Shown: positions 30,484-64,000, counted from the first letter of the stretch. The stretch: 64,000 bases of DNA from Gouania willdenowi (GCF_900634775.1 NC_041060.1:14661051-14725050); one strand, 5' to 3'. Translations and numbers: made by a program. The notes: generated from the letters alone by a model not told the origin.

Positions 30484-30597
30484 CTCTATCCCTGCTGCCT
30501 GGAAATCTGATTTCTCACCTGAATCAAAAGAGGCTCAGGAAAAAATGAGTGCTTTTAAGAAAAGACTCATTGACAGTGGAGTGAAGGTCACAGAGAA
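30484..30597 (+). CDS. tep1: TEP1 exon 20
   Basis: PAAWKSDFSPESKEAQEKMSAFKKRL compared with human [26 protein letters not shown]. Confidence 0.88.
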
Positions 30598-30757
30598 GTG
30601 AGTCAGCTCTTCATAAGTCTGAACGTGCACTATTTATTAAACACAACTGATATTTTAAGTACTAGTTTTAAAGAACTTCCCTAGTTTTCCCAGATCCTTT
30701 TCTAACAAGCCACCACAGCATTATCCTTAATATTTACCACATCCCTAATACTTGCAG

Positions 30758-30875
30758 TTATTCATGTGAATGGGGAGGCATTGTGGATGGAAAGCCACAC
30801 CTGAAAAACCTGGAAAAGTTCAGCAATGCCGTTCTGGAGGATCTTTGGCTCGCTGTTAGGAAGATGTTTGTGGAT
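30758..30875 (+). CDS. tep1: TEP1 exon 21
   Basis: YSCEWGG..LEKFSNAVLEDLWLAVRKMF compared with human [27 protein letters not shown]. Confidence 0.9.
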
Positions 30876-51552: not shown

Positions 51553-51555
51553 ATG
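51553..51555 (+). CDS. Candidate initiator ATG placed as the last three bases of a 5' exon (ATG|gtaagt)
   Basis: ctactaATGgtaagt, phase 0 into the exon at 51663. The alternative ATG at 51248 is out of frame with downstream exons. Confidence 0.35.
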
Positions 51556-51662
51556 GTAAGTTTGCTAACAGGACTGAGTCACAACATGCTATTTGTTTTA
51601 GTAAACATGTCGTCTGTGAGGGTTAGTGTGTGCTTATTATAACCGTGGACGGTGTTTGACAG

Positions 51663-51722
51663 GATCGCTACGATGACCTTGATTTGGATTTGGAATGTGA
51701 GGAAGGAGGAGGAAACGTGTCG
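51663..51722 (+). CDS. Repeat-gene exon DRYDDLDLDLECEEGGGNVS
   Basis: Acceptor tttgacag (preceded by an in-frame TGA), donor gtgagt, 20 codons. Confidence 0.55.
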
Positions 51723-52239
51723 GTGAGTTTTTTTTGTTTTTTTTGTTTTGTTTTTAAAGCTTGTTTTCTCCTGAAAGTCCTTCATGACGTCACTCAACGC
51801 TGACCCTGAACAGTTCTGTACAAAGTGTTACTTTAGAAACACATGTAGTTTTTATAGAAACAAATGCAAAGTTTGGCATAGAAATCCTATTTTACTGTGG
51901 CCTATTTTGAGTTTTGTTTACATCAGTGGTTCTCAAACAGAGGTACGTGTACCCCTGTGGGTACAGGAGAAAATTGCAGGAGGTACTCGGAAAAAAATAG
52001 CAATTGATTTAAAAAAATATTTGGAAATGTTCCTAGTTCTTTTTTTAGGCTTTTTTTTTGGACAAATTAACAGTAGTATCGCTCAATAAAATACTATATT
52101 TTCTTGTGATTTATTGGAAAAGGATTATTTTATCACACTTCTTATAATTGGAGACAATAATGAGCTACATTTTACTAATGAGATTGTATTTACTTACTAA
52201 TGAAGTGATCAATAAAAGTTGTAGTTTAACTGACTCCAA

Positions 52240-52570
52240 CATACAAAATTATATTAATCCAAAAATGCAAAATGACTCCAAGTGCACAGCAGGACAACAA
52301 ATATGTACGAAATTACTTGCAAAAACACACAATATAAATCCCAAAACACCTAAAATAATATCAAAACAACAGAAAAACAAACAGAATGACAACAATAATA
52401 CACAAAACAAATCAATAAAGCATAATAAAAATAACATAAAATTGCACATAATGCTACCATCATCACACAAAACCTTTTGTTTTTCCTGTATTAATGCTCA
52501 AATCACAGTTTGTGGCCCCCGCTGTAATAAAAGTTGCCTATATCTGCGCTATATCTGCCTTTATTATTTG
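52240..52570 (-). repeat. Copy of the minisatellite-bearing element
   Basis: Near-identical terminal block GTTTGTGGCCCCCGCTGTAATAAAAGTTGCCTATATCTGC. Confidence 0.8.
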
Positions 52571-52813
52571 TTTACTGGGTGGGATTAGCGCCTTAGATAA
52601 GAACCTGCATTAGCCATTTATGCAATGGAGCTAAAGCACTTAATACATTTTTAAAAATTGATACCAATGTCCATAGAAGCACTTAGAAATTAACAAATAT
52701 AATTTATAGGATTGATTGTTGTTAACAACAAGCATTCTATGGGGTGTGAGACTTTGTTTTCCAAATGCGTCTGACTTGCATTCATTTTACATGGCTTTGT
52801 GTTTCTCACTCAG

Positions 52814-52885
52814 CAAAAAGCAGCATTATTTGGTGGAATGTTCAAGAAACCCAAGTCCTCAGAGGCATCAGACCACCAGACCCAG
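52814..52885 (+). CDS. Repeat-gene exon QKAALFGGMFKKPKSSEASDHQTQ
   Basis: Acceptor ctcactcag, donor gtgaga, 24 codons. Confidence 0.65.
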
Positions 52886-53585
52886 GTGAGAATGAATTTA
52901 AAATTAAATAACTGTTTTTATTTATTACCTCCGCCAAGCGCAGAGCAGTAAGGTTATGTTTTACCCTCCGTTTTAATTAACTATTTGACAATTAATAATA
53001 TCATCCTTAGTTCAAATGTTAAATGTATGTTTTGATTAATAGTGTTTATAAAAACAATGTAGGGTGCTTTTCTAGTTTATTTATTTTATCATAGTCAATG
53101 TACATACTGTATGTTGCATCGCATTTTTTGGTTTGCATATTTCAGGAATTTTCATATTTTCGGAATGGTATTGCCTGCTTTCACCAATTCATTGACTTTA
53201 TCCATTATGGTGGCCTTAAATTGTAATTATTCACATAATTTACTCTCTGTATTTATAAATCCATGGCCTTTTTTATGACAAATACTCACATTTTAGGGGT
53301 TTTTCACTCTTAAGAATTTAAATCTAAAGAAACATATCCTGCACTTATATATATTTTGTTAAACAATGCATTTTTTTAGTGTTTAATTTGAAATGTTGTG
53401 TGTGAGTCAATGTCATTTTTAACAGATATTGTTTTTTAATGTTCAGTGTTGTATTTTTTGTATATAATTTATATGTCTTATTGTGCAGCATTTTGGTCAA
53501 ACCTTGTTTGTGTTTAAACGTGCTTTATAAATAAATTGGATTTGGATTTTTATGTTTTCAACCAGTGGCTTGTTGTTATTTTACA

Positions 53586-53651
53586 GGACGTTTTATCAAC
53601 CAGCAGAGACATTTCAAAGAGCAATGACAGTCTGACAGACAGCAACAGCAA
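53586..53651 (+). CDS. Repeat-gene exon DVLSTSRDISKSNDSLTDSNSK
   Basis: ag/gt, 22 codons. Confidence 0.65.
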
Positions 53652-53746
53652 GGTGAGCCCCACGGCTAATATGTTGAATAATAATTATTGGTAAATATTG
53701 GGTTATTTTGTTTTCATTTATTTATTTATTTTTTTACGTGTGTTTC

Positions 53747-53812
53747 AGGACAAAGGGACATTTAAAGGAAAGTTTAAAAAAACTACCAAATCAGACAAAG
53801 AGGGTTCTTCTC
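53747..53812 (+). CDS. Repeat-gene exon DKGTFKGKFKKTTKSDKEGSSQ
   Basis: ag/gt, 22 codons. Confidence 0.65.
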
Positions 53813-54454
53813 AGGTTTGTAGTGACATCTGAAATTTGATGTCTTGTCTGAACCGTTTGGTCTTTAAAGCCCAATTTAATCACAAAATTTACAGATTAAT
53901 TAGTATTATTTTATCTTGCCCCATTACAGGCTATAAAATGTTTGTTTTTTTTAATGTAACTTTTGTACAGATTGGGTTTTCCATATTAAACTGCCTAGCC
54001 TAATCCTCTTAATATTTAATAGGTGAAAGTGGTTTTTATATTACAAACCAAGCTCTTAAGGCAGAAATTTACAGATTAAACAGTGGAAAATCAACTAATT
54101 AACACTATTCTAATACGATTGTTTTCAACTTAATTTTATTGCTGTTTCTTTGAAAAATATGTATTACCGGTAATAAAATCTATTTGCTAAAGTAATATTT
54201 TAGGCTATTGAGTCCACTTAAAAAAAAAAAGAGAGAGAGACTGAGAAAGATTTGAATTACATATTTTATTTTTGGATGAATATTTAATTTATGTGGAAAT
54301 CCTCTAACACTTCTTTTTATTGATTTAGTTTTGTTCTGTACTAATGTTCATATTGTTAAAATCAGGAGTCTAAATTGAGTGTTTGGCACTTTGGTTCGAG
54401 AGTTAGGTTCAATATTCAATTTAAATTTAGTGTTTTATTTTCCATGTCTACACA

Positions 54455-54526
54455 GGCCTCTCTGGCTTTACCAAATCCTGAAATGTCTGCGAGCTGTGAA
54501 AGCTTAGAAAACAACAAGCCACAAAA
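54455..54526 (+). CDS. Repeat-gene exon ASLALPNPEMSASCESLENNKPQN
   Basis: ag/gt, 24 codons. Confidence 0.6.
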
Positions 54527-54617
54527 TGTGAGACTTCTTCAGCTTTCTAATATTATTAACTATTTTACTAAATAGTTTCCAGGTTTCTGATGTTTCTGAG
54601 CTTTCATTTATTTTTAG

Positions 54618-54680
54618 GAGAAGTTGGTTGGGAAACCGAAACGATCCCCGAGACCAGGACACGTTCGGAGGCACTCGCAG
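54618..54680 (+). CDS. Repeat-gene exon EKLVGKPKRSPRPGHVRRHSQ
   Basis: ag/gt, 21 codons. Confidence 0.6.
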
Positions 54681-54784
54681 GTAAAATTTATATTAATTTG
54701 TGGCTTTATTTTTTTTTATTGGACAGAAGAAAGAATAAACTCTGAATTTAAGTCTGTTTGATGATGAATTATCTTATGCTTTAG

Positions 54785-54841
54785 GATCTTTTGGATTTCT
54801 CTCCCAGTAATGACGGCGTGTCTGAGGGTTCTCACTCAAAG
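54785..54841 (+). CDS. Repeat-gene exon DLLDFSPSNDGVSEGSHSK
   Basis: ag/gt, 19 codons. Confidence 0.6.
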
Positions 54842-55646
54842 GTAGGTTTTACCACAAGAACAAGCTTTTTGTTAAAAAAAAAAAAGTTTGTTTTATTAAA
54901 GTTATTTAGGGAATTTAGATTAAAACACTGATTGATTTTTGGAAAAATAATGAAATAGGGAATTGAGCTGTTGTATACCTCTTAGTCAGAGCTTGGTTGC
55001 ACGAAATAAATCTAATGGTAAACACTTTGTTAATTGTTGGGCCTTGTCTTTTCTGGTTGTTTCAGCCTTTGTAAAAGCAACACACCATATCGCTAAGCCT
55101 TTATCATTCTGCAAATTTAACCAGACTGTTATTAGCATAATGATTTGAAAAAAATTGTACTGTGAAATTGTGAAATGTGAGTTAAAGAATATATTTAGTG
55201 GGGGAAAAAACACAAAAAAAATACAAACAAATTAGGATTAACCTTTTAGAAATGCAAATATAATATATATATATATATATATAAGTGAATAAATGTGTGA
55301 TCTACTGGCATGTGTCACATGGATCTCCAACATTTATAGGGTTTGACCTGTGAGACAGCATTTTACATTGTATACTAGTTTTACTTTACTGTACACTTAT
55401 AGCAGCAGCTGATGGAATGCTGTTGCTGTTGTCCAGTATTTGTCACAGAGCTGTTGACTCGTTGAATGGAGAGTCTTTGTTTTGTGTGTGTGCATGGAAA
55501 CTGTGTGCATCAGCTGTTTGAAACAAGCACTCGTGTGAAACAATGGATTGATGCATGGTGTGATCAGTTTTTTGTATTGGTTTGTAATGTTCTAATAACT
55601 GTATTTCTTTAAGTAATTTTAATGTGACTTTGTGTGGGATCTGTAG

Positions 55647-55718
55647 GGATCTGGAGGAATGTTCAGTGGGATTTTTAAGAAGTCTCCAAAACCGCCCGAA
55701 GTGAAGACACAGTCTCAG
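55647..55718 (+). CDS. Repeat-gene exon GSGGMFSGIFKKSPKPPEVKTQSQ
   Basis: ag/gt, 24 codons, A-type repeat. Confidence 0.7.
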
Positions 55719-55785
55719 GTATAGAGTGAACAGTCCTGCTCATACTTTTATCTTTTGTTGATTCTATAACACGGATGTGTTTCAG

Positions 55786-55854
55786 GAGGATTTGTCTGCT
55801 GCCGTTAAGCCCTCGAACAGTAATGATAATCTATCTGAGAATGGCAACAGTAAG
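55786..55854 (+). CDS. Repeat-gene exon EDLSAAVKPSNSNDNLSENGNSK
   Basis: ag/gt, 23 codons, B-type repeat. Confidence 0.7.
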
Positions 55855-56238
55855 GTGAGTTTTGTAAATAGCAACCAATCAGCAGCATTTTCATTGTTGG
55901 CAGGTGCAAGACTTTTCTTTCAAAACTCTTTTTATTACACATTTTTGGCACTCAATTAACAAAGATTTCCACATTTTGTGCAGTAAATACGTGCATTAAA
56001 AAAACAAAACAAAAAACAAGAAAACAACAGGAACAAGGATAAACTTGAAAAGTCAATAATAATATTAGCAATGATCGTAATAGTAGGAATAATAGCAACA
56101 ATAATGTTAAACAAATAATCATGCAAAGCAATAGATAATTGATACCCGTGAAATTAAAAAGAAGAGAAAACACAAAATTAGAATGAAAGCAAAACATTTT
56201 TAAAAACATTTGCTAATGGTAAAATCCTGGGTTAACAG

Positions 56239-56310
56239 GAGCACGGAGGGATGTTCAGTGGGATGTTTAAAAAAGCCTCCAAACCTCTTGGCGCGAGGAC
56301 CAAATCTCAG
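56239..56310 (+). CDS. Repeat-gene exon EHGGMFSGMFKKASKPLGARTKSQ
   Basis: A-type repeat. Confidence 0.7.
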
Positions 56311-56399
56311 GTATTTGGGATATTATAAAGGCCAAGAATAACCAGAGGAAGGATTAATGTCTCTATTTACAAAATCTGCTGCTTTTCTGTTATATTCAG

Positions 56400-56468
56400 G
56401 AAGATTTATTGGCATCAAATGAGAAATTAGGCAGTAGTGACAATCTTTCAGTGAACACCAACAATAAG
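56400..56468 (+). CDS. Repeat-gene exon EDLLASNEKLGSSDNLSVNTNNK
   Basis: B-type repeat. Confidence 0.7.
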
Positions 56469-56906
56469 GTGAGCTATGTTCAAGGTTATTACCATTGTAT
56501 TTCTGTATGGGATGCATTACTTTACGTTTTGAACAACCATAAATGATAAAAAAGAAAATATTCTGGTTTATTTTTCCATTACTTTTGTTGCAAATGAACA
56601 TAAACAATAAAAAGATGTATGTATATGCACTGTATATGTTTGTATAGTATTCTTACATAATTAAAAACCAAATGTGAAGTTTAAAATGTTATTTTGTGAA
56701 GAAGGGGTAGGCATCTTTAAGTTCCTTGAACTTCTGCCTACTCCTTTTGAGCACTTTCTCCATTGAATACGTGTTACGTATTGTACATAAAATGTGTTTT
56801 TTATGTTGCTCAAATAAATAAATAAACAACAAACAACAATGACTCAAAGCAACAAGTCTTCACTGTAACTGCTGTATTTTCAAATGGATTTATTGTGATT
56901 TTTCAG

Positions 56907-56978
56907 GAGTCAGGAGGAATGTTCAGTGGGATTTTTAAAAAGTCCCCGAAAAACTATGGAGCCAGGGCAGAGTCCAAG
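56907..56978 (+). CDS. Repeat-gene exon ESGGMFSGIFKKSPKNYGARAESK
   Basis: A-type repeat. Confidence 0.7.
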
Positions 56979-57072
56979 GTTTTTATTTTACATTTTACTT
57001 CAATCACTCTTTTTGCCTTTATTATTTTTTCATCATAAATCATTTTCTTAAACTTTTGTTGCTTGCTTTCAG

Positions 57073-57141
57073 GAGGATTTGTCTGCACCCGGTGAGCTTT
57101 CTGGCAGCAAAGAAAATCTTTCGGGGAATTCCAACACCAAG
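57073..57141 (+). CDS. Repeat-gene exon EDLSAPGELSGSKENLSGNSNTK
   Basis: B-type repeat. Confidence 0.7.
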
Positions 57142-57304
57142 GTGACCTTTGTTTAGCTTTATCATTTATTGATTATCAACATTTATCTGCAAACACCAAA
57201 AACTATGATTAGGATTCTCTTAATGTAAAAGCATCATGTATTTTTGTGTGTACAATGTAAGATTTATTCAAATATGTGTTTAATATAATTATTCAATCCT
57301 TCAG

Positions 57305-57376
57305 GAATCTGGTGGGATGTTTGGTGGGATGTTTAAAAAAGCCTCCAAACCGTATGGAGCGAGAGCACAGTCACAG
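57305..57376 (+). CDS. Repeat-gene exon ESGGMFGGMFKKASKPYGARAQSQ
   Basis: A-type repeat. Confidence 0.7.
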
Positions 57377-57499
57377 GTACACAGCTTGATTCTGTATGTT
57401 GTATATTGTCATTTCTGCAGTATATAAAACTACTCGTTGCTCACTTTTATACTTATAACTTAAGAATTCATTGCTCACTTCCTTTTCACTAACATTCAG

Positions 57500-57568
57500 G
57501 AGGATTTGTCCGCTCCCAGTGAGCTTTCTGGCAGCAAAGAAAATCTTTCGGGGAATTCCAACACCAAG
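57500..57568 (+). CDS. Repeat-gene exon EDLSAPSELSGSKENLSGNSNTK. It is nearly identical to the exon at 57073.
   Basis: B-type repeat. The flanking introns are also duplicated. Confidence 0.7.
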
Positions 57569-57737
57569 GTGACCTTTGTTAAGCTTTATTATTCTTTGAT
57601 TATCAACGTTTATCTGCACATGCCAAAAACTTCCTAACATGACGAGATCAAAGAGCGTGCATTATGTGTAATTAGGGAACGGGTTCTCTTCACATTAATG
57701 TATCACAGATATTTTTGTGTTGTATTTTGGCCTTTAG

Positions 57738-57809
57738 GAATCTGGTGGGATGTTCAGTGGGATGTTTAAAAAAGCCTCCAAACCCTATGGAGCGAGAGCA
57801 CAGTCACAG
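57738..57809 (+). CDS. Repeat-gene exon ESGGMFSGMFKKASKPYGARAQSQ. It is nearly identical to the exon at 57305.
   Basis: A-type repeat. Confidence 0.7.
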
Positions 57810-57895
57810 GTACACAGCTTGATTCTGTATATTGTATATTGTCATTTCTGCAGTATATAAAGCATAGTAAGTATTCATTACTCACTGTCTTTTCA

Positions 57896-57961
57896 GGAGG
57901 ATTTATCTGCAGACACTGAGCTTTCAGGCAGCAAAGAGAGTTTGTCTGAGAATCGCACCAA
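57896..57961 (+). CDS. Repeat-gene exon EDLSADTELSGSKESLSENRTK
   Basis: B-type repeat. Confidence 0.65.
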
Positions 57962-58038
57962 AGTAACTTCAAATCCAACAAATTGAATCCAAAAAAATTT
58001 CAATATAGAAATCCCTGACATTATAGAATTTTCCTCAG

Positions 58039-58098
58039 GAAAAAGGAGGAATCTTCAGCGGTGTGTTCAGGAAGAAAGTTCCCAGATCTCAGTCTCAG
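58039..58098 (+). CDS. Repeat-gene exon EKGGIFSGVFRKKVPRSQSQ
   Basis: Degenerate A-type repeat. Confidence 0.65.
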
Positions 58099-58679
58099 GT
58101 GACGAAACTGTGACGTATGCAACGATTGTGTTCAAGGAAAAAAAGAGGAGAACCAGAGGAACTTGATTTGCAACATAAGTCAAACCATGGATGAAGTGGT
58201 TATCAAGACTGAGCTGAAATTATTTTGTCTTACAGGTTCTCCAAAGCATTTATAAACGCTTTGTCATAAGAATTGCTCAAACACCCAAACATGCCTTTGT
58301 TGGCTTTAGACTTATTACTAATGACTTAAATATGTTTGGTTACATAGTTTCTCAATATGTTTATTGATACTGTGAGCAGAAGAAACAGTCTGCTTATATT
58401 AGTGGGTGTTACCGTTAACCACATGGGTCTGTTACGGCCTGCGTTTTCACAAGCATGCATGTTTACGTCACTAAGATCGATACCAGTAGGTCGGGATGAC
58501 TCGTCAAAAATACTCGACACTATCATGCATTATGTCACATGGTTGAGCTGTCATCAGGGAACAGTTTGTCATTTATAATCTTCAGCTCAGATCTTCTGTT
58601 GCAAACTGGATTGATGAGATGTTTATTTACTAATACAAACAGCCAATGTGTTACTGTGTCCCTGCGAGGATGTAGACCA

Positions 58680-59165
58680 GGGGTGTCAAACTCATTTTAG
58701 TTCAGGGGCCAAATACGGAGCAGTTTCATCTCAAGACTGCTACAGATTTTATGCGGGGAAAAAACAAGTAATTTCAACATTATTGTGCCCTATTTGCACT
58801 TGTACGTATACATAGAATACAAAATATATAAGAAACAGGCAATATCCAAGCAATAAGTGACAGACATCAGTCCCAACAGGGTCTTCACTTTAACTTTAGA
58901 TTTGTGACCAATTTGTATTTAATTAGAGAAAATGTTCTGTAATAATTTCAGGAAAATGAAAAGATTTTGTAGAAAAGTTAATAGTTGATAGATGTAATAT
59001 AAGCACCGGGAAAACTGTGACCTCCTGCAAATATTGTTGAGTTTAATTTACAGAATTTTTCACGTTTTCTTTGTCATTTTTACTTTCTCCTGCGGGACAA
59101 ATTGGATGCTCCAAAGGGCCAGATTTGGCCCCCGGGGCCCTCAGTTTGACACCTGTGATGTAGAC
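58680..59165. mobile_element. MITE of about 480 bp with terminal inverted repeats GGGTGTCAAACTCATTTTAGTTCAGGGGCCAAAT ... GGCCAGATTTGGCCCCCGGGGCCCTCAGTTTGACACCTG
   Basis: The TIRs are reverse-complementary. A second full copy lies at 38040-38480 (tep1 intron) and a partial copy at 49795-49875. Confidence 0.75.
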
Positions 59166-59222
59166 ATACAAACTGCTTGTTCTTTCTGTAAAAATAAATT
59201 CATTGTGTTTGTTTCCCTAAAG

Positions 59223-59285
59223 GATTATTTGAATGCAGATGGGGAACTGTCTGTAGACACAGACCATTTTGAGAAGTCCTCAAAG
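59223..59285 (+). CDS. Repeat-gene exon DYLNADGELSVDTDHFEKSSK
   Basis: ag/gt, 21 codons. Confidence 0.6.
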
Positions 59286-60100
59286 GTAAACGATTAAGTA
59301 GTTTTTGTTCTCATACATCACTTTTTAAACATGGATATAATATACACTAGAGATGTTTGGGTTAGGGTTACTGTCAAAGGTGCTTTTAACTGCTAAACTT
59401 ATCATATGACTTTTAATGTTACAATGGCTCTTAAAACTTTCATTATTACATGTACGCTATTATCTGTACTTTGTAAAGTTTCTTTGAGTTTTTCGAAAAA
59501 AGCACTGTATAAAATAAAGATTATTATTATTATTAATAATAATAATCACAATGTGTGGATTTTATTCCTGTAGACACAAATCCGACACGATAAATTACTG
59601 TTAAAATTACGGCACAAACTAAATAACTACAATGCAAATGCTGCATTTTAAATTTCAACCAGAGTTAGAAGAATAAATAAGCATGTTAATTCACTTCTGT
59701 ACAAACACTATAATATTGTGCAAAAACCATGTAAACACAATAGAGCAGATTAACTTAACCTGATTTTGTCCGCTTGCTGTGCTATGTGACCTTTTGGTGT
59801 AATGACCCAATTCTTCTTGTACATCTTGTGTTAAACATAAGTTAGCATCCAGCATTTGGTTGCATTACCGCCACCTCTGTTTGAAACTTAAAACGCAGCC
59901 TTTGCATTGCAGTTCTTTAATCGACACAAAATGCCTGTGATCTAGTGATGATATGTTGACAGTAATTTATCGTGGCGAATTCGTATCCTCGATAGTAATA
60001 TTTTAATGTGTCTGCCAGGGCGTGGCATCAAAGATCAAATTCATAAATGTGTTGAGAACTCAACCAATCTCATCGGTGCTGTTCAATATCTTTATGTAGG

Positions 60101-60175
60101 AAAAGAAAAAGAGTGAACACCCAGGAGACTTGAATGAGGATAGCGCCAGTGCTGAGAAAGCTAAAGTCAAAGAGG
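60101..60175 (+). CDS. Repeat-gene exon EKKKSEHPGDLNEDSASAEKAKVKE
   Basis: ag/gt, 25 codons. Confidence 0.6.
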
Positions 60176-60292
60176 TATTTTACTGAACTGCAATAATCTA
60201 AACTCTTCAGTATCGTTTGTTGTACTGACAATTTTGCCCCTAATCAGATTTAAATGTATGCAATGTACACTAACACGTTTGTCTTATTTCAG

Positions 60293-60340
60293 AATGGTTT
60301 CGGTGCAAAGATGAAGAGCACATTTCACGCCGTCAAACAG
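60293..60340 (+). CDS. Repeat-gene exon NGFGAKMKSTFHAVKQ
   Basis: ag/gt, 16 codons. Confidence 0.6.
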
Positions 60341-60485
60341 GTGAGACGATGGCAAATGTTAACAAAAAGTCAACCAAGACTATTTAGAAATTTGAACCAA
60401 TCTTTTCTTTTGCGTAGAAAAATGCACTGAACCTTTTTGCTACTATTAGTTAATAAGGTATCATAACACCTGAATTTATTTCCAG

Positions 60486-60551
60486 GAGAAGAATGCTACC
60501 ACTGACGATGAGTTATCAGATAATGACGAGAACCAGCCACCTCAAAAACAG
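60486..60551 (+). CDS. Repeat-gene exon EKNATTDDELSDNDENQPPQKQ
   Basis: ag/gt, 22 codons. Confidence 0.6.
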
Positions 60552-60573
60552 GTTTTTGCACTTGGTTTTGCTC

Positions 60574-60608
<35 letters not shown>

Positions 60609-60641
60609 GTAAAAACTTTTGTATTCTTTGCTCTCATTCAG

Positions 60642-60695
60642 AGCAAACTGGCCGGAGCAATGAGCAAGCTGAACCCATTTCGAACTGCACATAAA
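60642..60695 (+). CDS. Repeat-gene exon SKLAGAMSKLNPFRTAHK
   Basis: ag/gt, 18 codons, KLNPFR motif. Confidence 0.65.
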
Positions 60696-60999
60696 GTAAG
60701 TTAATTAGGTCCGTACATAAATACATTTGATTTAACTTTAAATGGCTTCTATAGTGAAAAATAAATGTTTGCCAGTGCTAACTTCCTGCCATAAAACTCA
60801 TATTTGCCAAATCACACACATGGCTTGCAGATTTTAACGAATGATGTGAATTAACAGCTGCAGCCTACATTCATTCACTCAAACAGGAAATTTCAGCTAA
60901 TCAACATAGCATACTGTACATGTTTTTAGATCGTGGGAAGAAGCCAGATTATCCAGGGATATAATGTAATTTGTTCCTTTAATGCATACAGACAAAATA

Positions 61000-61400
61000 C
61001 CTTAGTTATTAACCAGAACAAAGAGATCAAAGCACATTAGGCCAGTCTTAGTCTTTACACTGGCTCCCAGTCAGCCTCAGAATAGACTTTAAAGTTCTGC
61101 TGCTAGTTTATAAAGGTGTGAATGGGTTTGGTCCAGAATACATCAGTGAGATGTTAGTCAGGTATGAACCCAGCAGTTCTCTCAGATCTATGGACACGGG
61201 TCAGATAATGGAGCCCAGAGCTCACAGTAAACACGGTGTAGCTGCTTTTAGTTGTTATGCTGCCAAGAAGTGGAACAAACTGCCAGCAGAGCTGAAGTCA
61301 GCATCTAATGTGAACATTTTTAAATCAAAGTTGAAGGAACTCATGTTTTTTTTTTTCTTTTCTACTGCCTCTGAAAAAGAGGGAGGTTTTTAGTCATTTT
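61000..61400 (+). mobile_element. SINE-like dispersed repeat. A second copy lies inverted at 46040-46330.
   Basis: GGCTCCCAGTCAGCCTCAGAATAGACTTTAAAGTTCTGCTGCTAGTTTATAAAGGTGTGAATGGGTTTGGTCC... is reverse-complementary to 46060-46330. Both copies produce spurious ORFs (..NGFGPE.ISE.LVRYEP..). Confidence 0.75.
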
Positions 61401-61565
61401 ATTGTTGAATACAGACTGTTTAACATTTTTATTTATGGAAAAGCACATTGAAATGCCTTGTCTATGAAATGTGCTATACAAATAAATTTTTCGGGCCCTT
61501 TGTTGTTTTGTTGAATAGTAGCCACAACTTCTTCTGTAAAAACAACTTTTGTGCTTTATTTACAG

Positions 61566-61637
61566 CATGAGAAGCAGCAGAGTTCAGACGAGGAGGAAAC
61601 AGTTCCTTACAAGGAGAAACCATCCGGTCACAAACAG
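61566..61637 (+). CDS. Repeat-gene exon HEKQQSSDEEETVPYKEKPSGHKQ
   Basis: ag/gt, 24 codons. Confidence 0.6.
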
Positions 61638-62093
61638 GTGCTTTGGGGTTTGTCTGTTCTTTAGATTTTCTTTTTTTTTTTTTTTTTAGGTTTGGTGAAT
61701 TATTTTAGTTCAATGTGAAAGGAAATCACTTGATGTTTTCTGCTTTTTATTCATACAGTCACACCTTAGGACTGCTTAGACATCTATAGTACATATTTTA
61801 AATCAAGCATAATAATTATTGTAGAGATATAAATAAAATAAAGGTATAAAGTAATTGAGATGATTTTAATAAGGTCGTATAATAAATGTGTCACACGCAA
61901 AAGTCTTTGACACAAGTTTTTTGCAAGTGTATTTACAGTTACAAAGAATTGAAACGTATTGTGCCTTTTAACCATTTATATGAATATAGTCACCATCCTC
62001 ATAGTTACTATAAACATGTATCTTAACTTTAGCGTGGCATGTCTGCTCTCATGGAGTCAAAGTGTGAATCTGATGATGTTTGCTCCCTCATAG

Positions 62094-62147
62094 AACGCCA
62101 TGGTTGAAGCTATGGCCAAACTGAATCCATTTCGATCGGCACATAAA
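62094..62147 (+). CDS. Repeat-gene exon NAMVEAMAKLNPFRSAHK
   Basis: Second copy of the KLNPFR.AHK exon type. Confidence 0.65.
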
Positions 62148-62548
62148 GTAACTACGATACGGATAAACTTTCTGTGTGGAGGTGATGGGCTAGCTCTGAT
62201 AGCTTTACTCCAGACGACTTTACTTCAAATCTGTAAAAAGGCACCAGAACAAAGCCTGACTAACCCATTTCTACACTTTGTTGGGTTTATTACTTTTTTA
62301 AGCAGCCATTGATTTGAAATCATTCCAACATTTTTGAATATTTCCGCTGATGTGTTATTCTAACACATACTGTATGTACAGTAATTTAATATCAGCGGCA
62401 GATGTATTTATTTGAAATCAATGGCTTGATGTTTTACATGGCCCTAAAACTCTAACAAATAACATTTTCACACCTAAAAAATCAGTTGGGTTTTTTTTTT
62501 TTTTTTTTTAACTCAGTTCAAGGCTCGTTTCCCATTCTATTTGTGCAG

Positions 62549-62608
62549 AAAGATTCTGAAGCTGTAGAGACGCTCGCCGAGAAGGAAGTGAAAGAGAAAC
62601 CCAAACCG
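62549..62608 (+). CDS. Repeat-gene exon KDSEAVETLAEKEVKEKPKP
   Basis: ag/gt, 20 codons. Confidence 0.55.
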
Positions 62609-62823
62609 GTCAGTCTGTATTTTTGTATTTCTGCTCATTAAATAGCGACCACACACACACGCACACACACAGCTATTCTGTCCTGATTTAATAATGCACA
62701 CCTCCTTATCTTCCTTATAATGATCACATCTTCATCACTTTAATTATTCTCTGCTCACTGTTAATTTCACCGTCTGTTTACTGAGTGATTTTAATTGTGT
62801 GTTATGGCGCATTTGTTTGTCAG

Positions 62824-62901
62824 ATGAAAAGGAACATGATCCAGTCGGAAAACAAGGAGAGAAGTGAAACGCCACCAGTCCCACGCAGAACTACTTCAAA
62901 G
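62824..62901 (+). CDS. Repeat-gene exon MKRNMIQSENKERSETPPVPRRTTSK
   Basis: ag/gt, 26 codons. Confidence 0.55.
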
Positions 62902-62984
62902 GTCTGAATGCAGGCAGATACGGTTCCTGTTTGATGTTTCACAGCCCTTTTGTGTTCTAACTTTTCTGTTGTTGTTGTATTACA

Positions 62985-63044
62985 GGAGAATACAGGGATG
63001 GCCACTGAGGACAGAGTGAAACCAAGAAGAACCAAATATGAGAA
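62985..63044 (+). CDS. Repeat-gene exon ENTGMATEDRVKPRRTKYEK
   Basis: ag/gt, 20 codons. Confidence 0.55.
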
Positions 63045-63395
63045 GGTACAGCGAGTAATGCAGCTTTTATTCTGGCTTTTTGATTACACCGGTTTACTTA
63101 CAAGTGAAGTCTTTGATCTCTTAATCGGCCAAGTCTCACCTTTGAAGCTGAGAATCAAATTAATTTAACTTACTGATATTTATTTATTAAAAAGATTTTT
63201 TTCTGATTAATTGTCCATAGTAAGAGGCTGAGATATTGGGTGTCTAGCACTGGCTTTGATTGCTGGATTTCTTTCCATTCGTATCCGCTAAAACGCATCT
63301 TTTAAAAACATTACATTATTCAAATTATGTTTAGCTGCTTTTATCTTGCAAAATTACAAAATTGATGGTTAAGTCAGTCGTTTAATTTTTTGCAG

Positions 63396-63476
63396 AACAA
63401 GTCTGATGATGAAGGCATCGACGCAGGTGAATTGCCCCTGAGCGAGGAGCTCCAGAAAGATGCTGAAAACAAACCC
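63396..63476 (+). CDS. Repeat-gene exon NKSDDEGIDAGELPLSEELQKDAENKP
   Basis: ag/gt, 27 codons. The gene continues beyond the window. Confidence 0.55.
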
Positions 63477-64000
63477 GTAAGTGTGTCCGGCTTTCATTTT
63501 GGTCAAAGGATTCCGTTTTATGGCTAAAGTTCAGTACAAACAAGAAAGGAAGGAAGCTATTTAACCATGCCACATTACTAACATTCATGTCAGTGTTTCG
63601 GATAACCCATCTGAACATTAATACAGGAAAGAACAAAGTTTTTGTTGTCATTTTGGATATTTTCTAGTTATTTTGATGTATTTTTGTTTGTTTCTATTGT
63701 CATTTTGTGTGTTTTTAGAGTATATTGGTTTATTTTTGTTGTTGTTTGGTATATGTTTGTATTGTGTGTATTTTTAGCCGTTTTGTAAATGGTAAATGGT
63801 AAATGGACTTGATTTATATAGCGCTTTATCACCACACTGAAGCAGTCTCAAAGCGCTTTACAGATCAGCTCATTCACCCAAACACTCTCACATCCACACA
63901 CCAATGGGGCAAGACTGCCATGCAAGGCGCTAGTCGACTACTGGGAGCAACTTAGGGTTCAGTGTCTTGCCCAAGGACACTTCGACACATAGTCAGGTAC

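Follow-up and report, generated by a model that had tools for sequence, protein, structure and literature searches.

To our knowledge, mammalian ApoL proteins are short and are not extended by a tail encoded on mini-exons. An evolutionary study of the family places an APOLD1-like gene at its root (Molecular Biology and Evolution 2021, PMC8557400). The zebrafish member, apol1 (NP_001025309), occupies a 2.6-kb locus (PMC4492502), and its knock-down and CRISPR disruption have been studied with regard to glomerular filtration and podocyte integrity (PMC4492502, PMC4854397). Here we describe a 64,000-nucleotide stretch of Gouania willdenowi DNA (GCF_900634775.1 NC_041060.1:14661051-14725050; the window), whose positions 51,553 to 63,476 hold a gene built from tiny coding exons that specify a modular, low-complexity protein. 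A sequence-only reading of this stretch could not assign the gene to a known family; the homology search with its concatenated translation, however, places it among the teleost ApoL (apol1-like) genes. It is probable (roughly 0.85) that the locus is the 5′ two-thirds of a teleost ApoL-domain gene of the kind named 'apolipoprotein L1', a tandem paralog of apold1a located beside TEP1, and that it encodes an exon-modular, disordered N-terminus. The human APOL1-6 and APOLD1 proteins are related to it via the C-terminal PF05461 domain of its orthologs.

The zebrafish apol1 locus is much shorter than the window-type gene (PMC4492502). The start-site morpholinos used in these studies translate to MEWLDD… (PMC4854397, PMC4492502), resembling the herring and sardine orthologs that begin MEWTLDLECEE…, and the zebrafish apol1 used as a model of APOL1 may thus be an ortholog of the long gene. 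Neither PMC4492502 nor PMC4854397 mentions an N-terminal repeat array; literature searches on teleost APOL evolution, apold1a and zebrafish apold1 found nothing on the N-terminal module, and those on phase-0 microexons and tandem exon duplication returned general papers only. In terms of architecture, the titin PEVK region and the tau/MAP repeats are the nearest described arrangements, and the analogy drawn from the sequence with PEVK and tau-repeat exons is a fair one, as all feature one module per symmetric exon, tandem duplication and, here in relatives, whole-exon isoforms. They nevertheless have no sequence homology with the window gene, and the motif chemistry is different.

Identity of the mini-exon gene

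The region from 50 to 64 kb was scanned by a script for open reading frame segments preceded by AG, followed by GT and of a length that is a multiple of three, and the candidates were curated against the repeated peptide motifs. The scan recovered 29 exons of 16-27 codons each on the plus strand (51663-63476), all of them in phase 0-0, with a polypyrimidine tract and AG before, GT after and a length divisible by 3. By inference from the usual mix of intron phases, such a run of 29 symmetric exons would be extremely unlikely. The ATG at 51553-51555 is the final codon of an upstream exon (ctaATG, followed by gtaagt), and with it the window contains 30 coding exons encoding ~644 residues, i.e. 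Met plus the 643-amino-acid (aa) concatenation of the 29 exons. The earlier count of at least 30 tiny coding exons agrees with this map, and the proposal that all exons are of 16-27 codons and in phase 0, so that any subset can be spliced in frame, was confirmed for 29/29 of them.

With the 643-aa query, 207 proteins were matched at E<=1e-3 (best E=2e-245, 100% query coverage), and all named matches were teleost proteins of ~900-1100 aa, most commonly carrying the NCBI name 'apolipoprotein L1 isoform X…'. Domains, motifs and NPF tripeptides were counted per homolog in 120 listed of the 207 matches, 113 of which carry PF05461 (ApoL). The homologs start with MDRYD(N/D)LDLDLECE…, the same as the window ATG plus exon 1; identity between the window and its orthologs is 52-65% across the whole 644 aa, and the tblastn matches are collinear. 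The 643 aa by themselves gave only sub-threshold noise and no family in a Pfam scan, and nothing at E<=1 in a sequence search of the PDB. The teleost 'apolipoprotein L1' models (P0001 of Dissostichus, P0002 of Ophioblennius and P0012 of Stegastes), which are orthologs by name of zebrafish apol1, share the N-terminus, the motif order and the one-motif-per-exon phase-0 structure with the window. They differ from it in the number of A/B exon pairs (0-7 A motifs per protein among the 120 homologs); the window also lacks an optional '..KNPF..' exon found in some species between exons 19 and 20, and its exon 6 has no Phe pair. The gene is therefore an ordinary member of a known family, and orthologous gene models are annotated across well over 100 fish genomes.

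Some orthologs have received other automatic names from NCBI, namely starmaker-like, titin homolog, piccolo, dentin sialophosphoprotein and neurofilament. These identities are composition-driven and were rejected, because the same proteins carry PF05461. Two of the names, 'starmaker-like' and 'dentin sialophosphoprotein', which recur on several orthologs, together with the Ser-rich acidic blocks and the exclusively phase-0 mini-exons, would suit an acidic phosphoprotein secreted for biomineralisation, of the SCPP/starmaker/dentin-sialophosphoprotein type, whose genes likewise consist of small phase-0 exons. However, no signal peptide was found, the N-terminus (MDRYDDLDLDLECEEGGG) being acidic rather than hydrophobic; the 644 aa have a net charge of ~+4 with 13% Lys and are not acidic overall; the Pfam scan matched no SCPP family; and the orthologs finish in a membrane-type ApoL domain. 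We thus consider an SCPP identity scarcely credible.

The link to the ApoL domain is provided by the ortholog of Ophioblennius macclurei (P0002, locus L002), for which the protein was mapped to the DNA. That gene contains 34 consecutive phase-0 mini-exons of 13-31 codons, with one motif each and a motif order matching that of the window, and the two exon maps match exon for exon. Its 3′ part consists of three short exons with other phases and a final 317-codon exon, which is the ApoL domain. The split start (ATG, followed by gtaag) is identical at the annotated start of its coding sequence. TEP1 (TROVE/NACHT/WD40) lies upstream of the O. macclurei gene, and the window at 34.4-48.9 kb (+) is collinear with that TEP1 by tblastx; the synteny from TEP1 to the apol1-like gene is conserved between the two. 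From the ortholog exon map and the synteny, therefore, the window contains the first ~two-thirds of the gene, and ~8 further exons plus the ApoL exon are expected beyond base 64000. Alternatively, the mini-exon array of G. willdenowi could be detached from any ApoL domain, either as a gene of its own or as a truncated copy, given that the window stops before any ApoL exon and that some database entries of 480-555 aa have no such domain (P0010, P0063, P0066, P0083 and P0103). These short entries, however, look like partial models or contigs (P0010, for example, lies on a 1747-nt contig), exon 29 has a normal donor at its end and no stop codon, and in the ortholog the same exon has 8 others after it, followed by the ApoL exon, which makes a stand-alone array most improbable.

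Cassette structure, selection and isoforms

The exons of the array are of two alternating kinds. The A exon (24 codons) is basic/hydrophobic and reads (E/G)xGGMF(S/G)G(M/I)FKK(A/S)(S/P)KP…SQ, and the B exon (22-23 codons) is acidic/Ser-rich and reads EDLSA..ELSGSKENLS.NSNTK. The canonical A motif GG[MI]F[SG]G[MIV]F[KR]K occurs in six copies (exons 8, 10, 12, 14, 16 and 18), the B motif EDLSA..ELSGSKENLS in exons 9, 11, 13, 15 and 17, and KLNPFR[TS]AHK in exons 23 and 25, a diverged duplicate pair of the form …AM(S/A)KLNPFR(T/S)AHK. All three motif types reported from the sequence are thus present, and the strict A/B alternation described over at least five exon pairs proved at least as regular as described: it runs across exons 8-19 and continues in degenerate form (LFGGMFKK; SKSNDSLTDSNSK; GTFKGKFKK) in exons 2-7. 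Net charge changes sign with every exon from 1 to 19, with no exception (-7, +2, -1, +4, -2, +6, -3, +3, -2, …). Among the 120 homologs, 390 A copies yield the consensus K-E-[KST]-G-G-[VMI]-F-S-G-[MV]-F-K-K-x-P-K-P, in which G, G, F, G, F, K and K are each found in 86-100% of copies. NPF tripeptides number 3-5 per ortholog in 105/120 proteins, two of them falling within the window; N, P and F of these exons are nearly invariant in the ortholog alignments and are located in the region predicted to be disordered.

The short motifs are under purifying selection, and the linkers and introns are not. Between paralogous A exons in the window, the proportion of synonymous differences (pS) is 0.55-0.74 (saturated) and that of non-synonymous differences (pN) is 0.10-0.22, with dN/dS of 0.09-0.24; the corresponding dN/dS of the B exons is 0.14-0.39. 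Within the A exon, the first 12 codons, which hold the motif, show a pN of 0.03-0.14 vs 0.15-0.38 in the other 12. Of the bases, 74% in exons and 7.7% in introns align to the O. macclurei gene. Spliced RNA was found in a relative: the Logan contig L001 (SRR27393481, 4159 nt) contains an uninterrupted 2979-nt open reading frame for the 992-aa ortholog P0085 and is a spliced mRNA with the mini-exons joined as predicted. Both worries raised with the sequence-only reading, i.e. a lack of transcripts and an origin as a transposable-element or pseudogene array, are answered in this way. The region is indeed repetitive and has transposable-element fragments within its introns, as expected of a decaying pseudogene or of transposon-derived repeats with chance open frames. 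Against such a non-functional array stand the canonical splice sites and open frame in 29/29 exons, a dN/dS well below 1 with exons conserved and introns not, the exon-by-exon orthology over teleosts from eels to percomorphs, and the spliced mRNA; its probability is practically negligible.

The disordered N-terminal tail grew by repeated tandem duplication of a two-exon A+B cassette, with an A exon of the type K-E-x-G-G-[VMI]-F-S-G-[MV]-F-K-K-x-P-K-P and a B exon of the type EDLSA.SELSGS.DNLS.N, and later copies of the cassette diverged, e.g. into the two KLNPFR exons. A recent step of this kind is visible in the window, where a 427-433 bp unit is present in two copies that are 92-96% identical, introns included, and pS is 0.13 between their exons vs 0.5-0.9 for older copies. 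Tandem Repeats Finder did not detect the exon-pair repeat in the window, because the copies are too diverged at a period of ~430-670 bp; a separate repeat search found it. The idea of extensive exon shuffling needs to be amended accordingly: serial tandem duplication of the A+B pair gives a better account of the array.

Since all exons are in phase 0-0, duplication, loss or skipping is frame-neutral, and motif number therefore varies between species and annotated isoforms. NCBI isoforms within single species differ by exact whole exons, with 0 mismatches elsewhere. The differences amount to 47 aa, or one A+B pair (Trematomus, Hippoglossus), 93 aa, or two A+B pairs (Epinephelus, Labrus), 18 aa, or a KLNPFR-type exon (Chaetodon, Syngnathus, Epinephelus), and 16 aa, or the NGFSAMMK exon; further differences, of 43, 48 or 85 aa, fall in the downstream part of the protein. 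In two isoform pairs, P0016/P0019 of Acanthopagrus latus and P0021/P0047 of Chaetodon trifascialis, the difference is one Gln where an exon begins, which looks like the use of NAGNAG-type alternative acceptors besides whole-exon cassettes.

The module appears to be restricted to a pair of tandem ApoL paralogs in teleosts, apol1-like and apold1a-like. A phmmer search of 1.84 billion representative proteins with P0010 (517 aa, N-terminal only and lacking the ApoL domain) returned only 66 clusters at E<=1e-3 and detected no homolog of the mini-exon tail outside teleost ApoL proteins, although no look was taken at non-teleost fishes in particular. The ApoL domain present in every long match belongs to either of two subtypes; 30/48 scanned matches reach Pfam ApoL, and the rest are short fragments. 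All looked-up matches (10/10) are teleost, from catfish, moray eel, smelt, salmon, sardine, cods, hake, goby and seahorse. Type 1, to which the window belongs, starts with MDRYDNLDLDLECE and has the NPF exons; type 2 starts with MEACMMKPEVKKKPKPPKPPPKP and has no NPF. The sardine (Sardina) type-2 protein is named apold1a. In type 2 (P0114, P0089 and, in Sardina, P0124), the same A and B motifs, each on its own phase-0 mini-exon, precede the ApoL domain; the gene lies in tandem with type 1, but differs from the window gene in its N-terminus, its lack of NPF exons, a distinct ApoL subtype and a length often of 1300-1700 aa. In O. macclurei, the type-2 paralog is the gene directly downstream of the type-1 gene (L002 25904-32090), and its A and B motifs again occupy distinct phase-0 mini-exons, e.g. 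DSLSVPSELSASSDSLSENSK at 30506-30568 and EKGSIFSGMFKKK at 30716-30781. The cassette array is common to both tandem paralogs and therefore predates their tandem duplication.

Coordinates and neighbouring features

The window is AT-rich eukaryotic DNA (GC ~0.33-0.40) with introns, microsatellites and interspersed repeats typical of teleost fish. The features of the gene are collected in Table 1.

Table 1. Features of the mini-exon gene, in window coordinates.
Feature	Position	Strand	Codons	Description	Repeat family
Start codon ATG	51553..51555	+		Last 3 nt of first (5′ untranslated) exon, donor gtaagt next; read directly, split as in O. macclurei (L002 10001)	
Exon 1	51663..51722	+	20	DRYDDLDLDLECEEGGGNVS, conserved acidic N-terminus; matches ortholog MDRYD.LDLDLECE	
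Exon 2	52814..52885	+	24	A-type (LFGGMFKK)	
Exon 3	53587..53652	+	22	B-type (SKSNDSLTDSNSK)	
Exon 4	53749..53814	+	22	Degenerate A-type (GTFKGKFKK)	D5
Exon 5	54456..54527	+	24	B-type (NPEMSASCESLENNK)	
Exon 6	54618..54680	+	21	Basic (KPKRSPRPGHVRRHSQ); A-type, Phe pair lost; ortholog consensus EKSGVFGGILKRSPKPGH	
Exon 7	54785..54841	+	19	Acidic B-type (DLLDFSPSNDGVSEGSHSK)	
Exon 8	55647..55718	+	24	Canonical A (GGMFSGIFKKSPKP)	D1
Exon 9	55786..55854	+	23	Canonical B	D2
Exon 10	56239..56310	+	24	Canonical A	
Exon 11	56400..56468	+	23	Canonical B	
Exon 12	56907..56978	+	24	Canonical A	
Exon 13	57073..57141	+	23	Canonical B (EDLSAPGELSGSKENLSGNSNTK)	
Exon 14	57305..57376	+	24	Canonical A	
Exon 15	57500..57568	+	23	Canonical B	
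Exon 16	57738..57809	+	24	Canonical A	
Exon 17	57897..57962	+	22	Canonical B	
Exon 18	58039..58098	+	20	A-type (EKGGIFSGVFRKK); distinct last A exon, conserved in orthologs	
Exon 19	59223..59285	+	21	B-type (DYLNADGELSVDTDHFEKSSK)	
Exon 20	60100..60174	+	25	Charged linker	
Exon 21	60293..60340	+	16	NGFGAKMKSTFHAVKQ; its counterpart in Syngnathus typhle isoforms is a cassette exon	
Exon 22	60486..60551	+	22	Acidic	
Exon 23	60642..60695	+	18	SKLAGAMSKLNPFRTAHK, first NPF motif	D6
Exon 24	61566..61637	+	24	Acidic (SSDEEET)	
Exon 25	62094..62147	+	18	NAMVEAMAKLNPFRSAHK, second NPF motif; orthologous exon is a cassette in several species	D6
Exon 26	62549..62608	+	20		
Exon 27	62824..62901	+	26	…RSETPPVPRR…	
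Exon 28	62986..63045	+	20		
Exon 29	63396..63476	+	27	SDDEGI…, last exon within window	
Recent tandem duplication	57068..57861	+		Unit of B exon, intron, A exon; copies are exons 13/14 and 15/16	D3, D4

Several other elements were found within or near the gene. Microsatellites of the (TA)n and (TG)n/(TA)n types (family D8) lie at 55255-55285 in intron 7 and at 60575-60612 in intron 22. Intron 18 contains a ~490-bp element (58673-59162) with 20-nt imperfect inverted repeats at its ends (…GGGGTGTCAAACT / AGTTTGACACCTG…), which looks like a small DNA-transposon remnant. An interspersed repeat is present in two copies, at 61052-61309 (+, intron 23) and at 46048-46236 (-), which have in common an ORF-like segment (…VNGFGPE.IS..LVRYEP…SKHG.AAFSCYAA.KWN…) and a 25-mer that occurs 2 times in the window vs 0 expected. 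Inside the TEP1 region, 46931-47461 (+) holds a 176-aa open frame of nearly only Glu/Asp (…EEEEDDEEEEDDEKEEEDEEEEEEEDDEK…); charged parts of ApoL proteins match it compositionally only, and it may be either a TEP1 exon or a simple GA-rich repeat.

Candidate roles of the tail

Ser (14%), Lys (13%), Glu (10%) and Gly (8%) are prominent among the 644 residues, and Ile, Cys and Trp are nearly absent. In an AlphaFold2 model of the full-length ortholog P0002 (46-sequence alignment), residues 1-711 have no secondary structure, with confidence scores (pLDDT) of 30-45, and helices are seen solely in the C-terminal ApoL part, at modest confidence. The mini-exon region is accordingly predicted to be intrinsically disordered.

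The A motif had been likened from the sequence to the basic amphipathic membrane- or calmodulin-binding segment of MARCKS. The MARCKS effector domain is likewise unstructured and contains Lys and Phe, but the A motif is not homologous to it. The effector domain is highly basic and has five Phe, compared with ~3 basic residues and two Phe in the A motif. Moreover, the helical hydrophobic moment of the A motif is 0.51-0.54, under the maximum of shuffled sequences (0.67 +/- 0.06), so there is no amphipathic-helix signal above shuffles, nor does AlphaFold2 predict a helix there in P0002; the protein begins with MDRY and hence has no Gly2 for myristoylation. The moment not exceeding that of shuffles, the MARCKS-like or amphipathic idea stays a resemblance.

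Our preferred functional reading, which is tentative, is that of a cytosolic protein anchored by its ApoL helices, whose tail would offer short linear motifs in a multivalent, splice-tunable array, with roles for the A, B and NPF motifs. The cytosolic placement is suggested by the missing signal peptide, and the anchoring would be achieved by the hydrophobic helices of the C-terminal ApoL domain. The Phe/Met-Lys (A) motifs could make weak membrane or protein contacts. The Ser/acidic B blocks could be spacers that balance charge and may be phosphorylated, and the NPF motifs are candidate ligands of EH domains. The valency of the tail would be tuned by splicing and copy number. A broader claim, that the A/B array is a teleost-specific module, tunable by splicing or copy number, that controls the site and manner of action of an ApoL-domain membrane protein, for example through avidity binding to membranes or EH networks or through condensation, is doubtful.

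Alternatively, the tail could form a cohesive domain of the FG-nucleoporin or block-polyampholyte condensate type, in which the Phe pairs would be stickers and the alternating charge blocks spacers, rather than docking motifs or membrane binders. The six to nine regularly spaced G-G-x-F-x-G-x-F units, the strict alternation of positive and negative blocks and the complete predicted disorder are consistent with it. The conservation, however, covers all 15 residues of the motif, with K-E and K-K-x-P-K-P at its flanks, which exceeds the needs of a sticker model, and there is no sequence relation to nucleoporins, phmmer yielding ApoL proteins only. A condensate domain of this kind is improbable.

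Several points weigh against the reading of the locus as an ApoL gene with a motif-array tail. As regards identity, the ApoL domain is outside the window, so that its linkage to the array in G. willdenowi is drawn from orthologs and synteny, and the transcript support comes from a relative rather than from the window's own species. As regards the isoforms, gene prediction could have produced the skips of one A+B pair among near-identical pairs through faulty read mapping; skips of unique exons, of 16 and 18 aa, are less prone to such artefacts. As regards function, the hydrophobic moment of the A motif and its lack of a predicted helix, together with all other results, favour no specific motif role. 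EH domains of the EHD class prefer acidic flanks, whereas the NPF motifs have basic ones.

What appeared to be an unknown modular gene is an ortholog of the ApoL family, and the result mainly clarifies the identity of the region. The new element is a conserved mini-exon tail of 650-700 residues with strong motif-level constraint, seemingly undescribed in the searchable literature. As a natural case, it neatly illustrates how a disordered region with charge-alternating blocks grows via duplication of a two-exon cassette. If the tail is indeed a tunable module, it would be a functionally important part of fish apol1/apold1a that the zebrafish apol1 kidney studies have left unconsidered. The tail could also bear on how fish models of APOL1/APOLD1 biology are interpreted.

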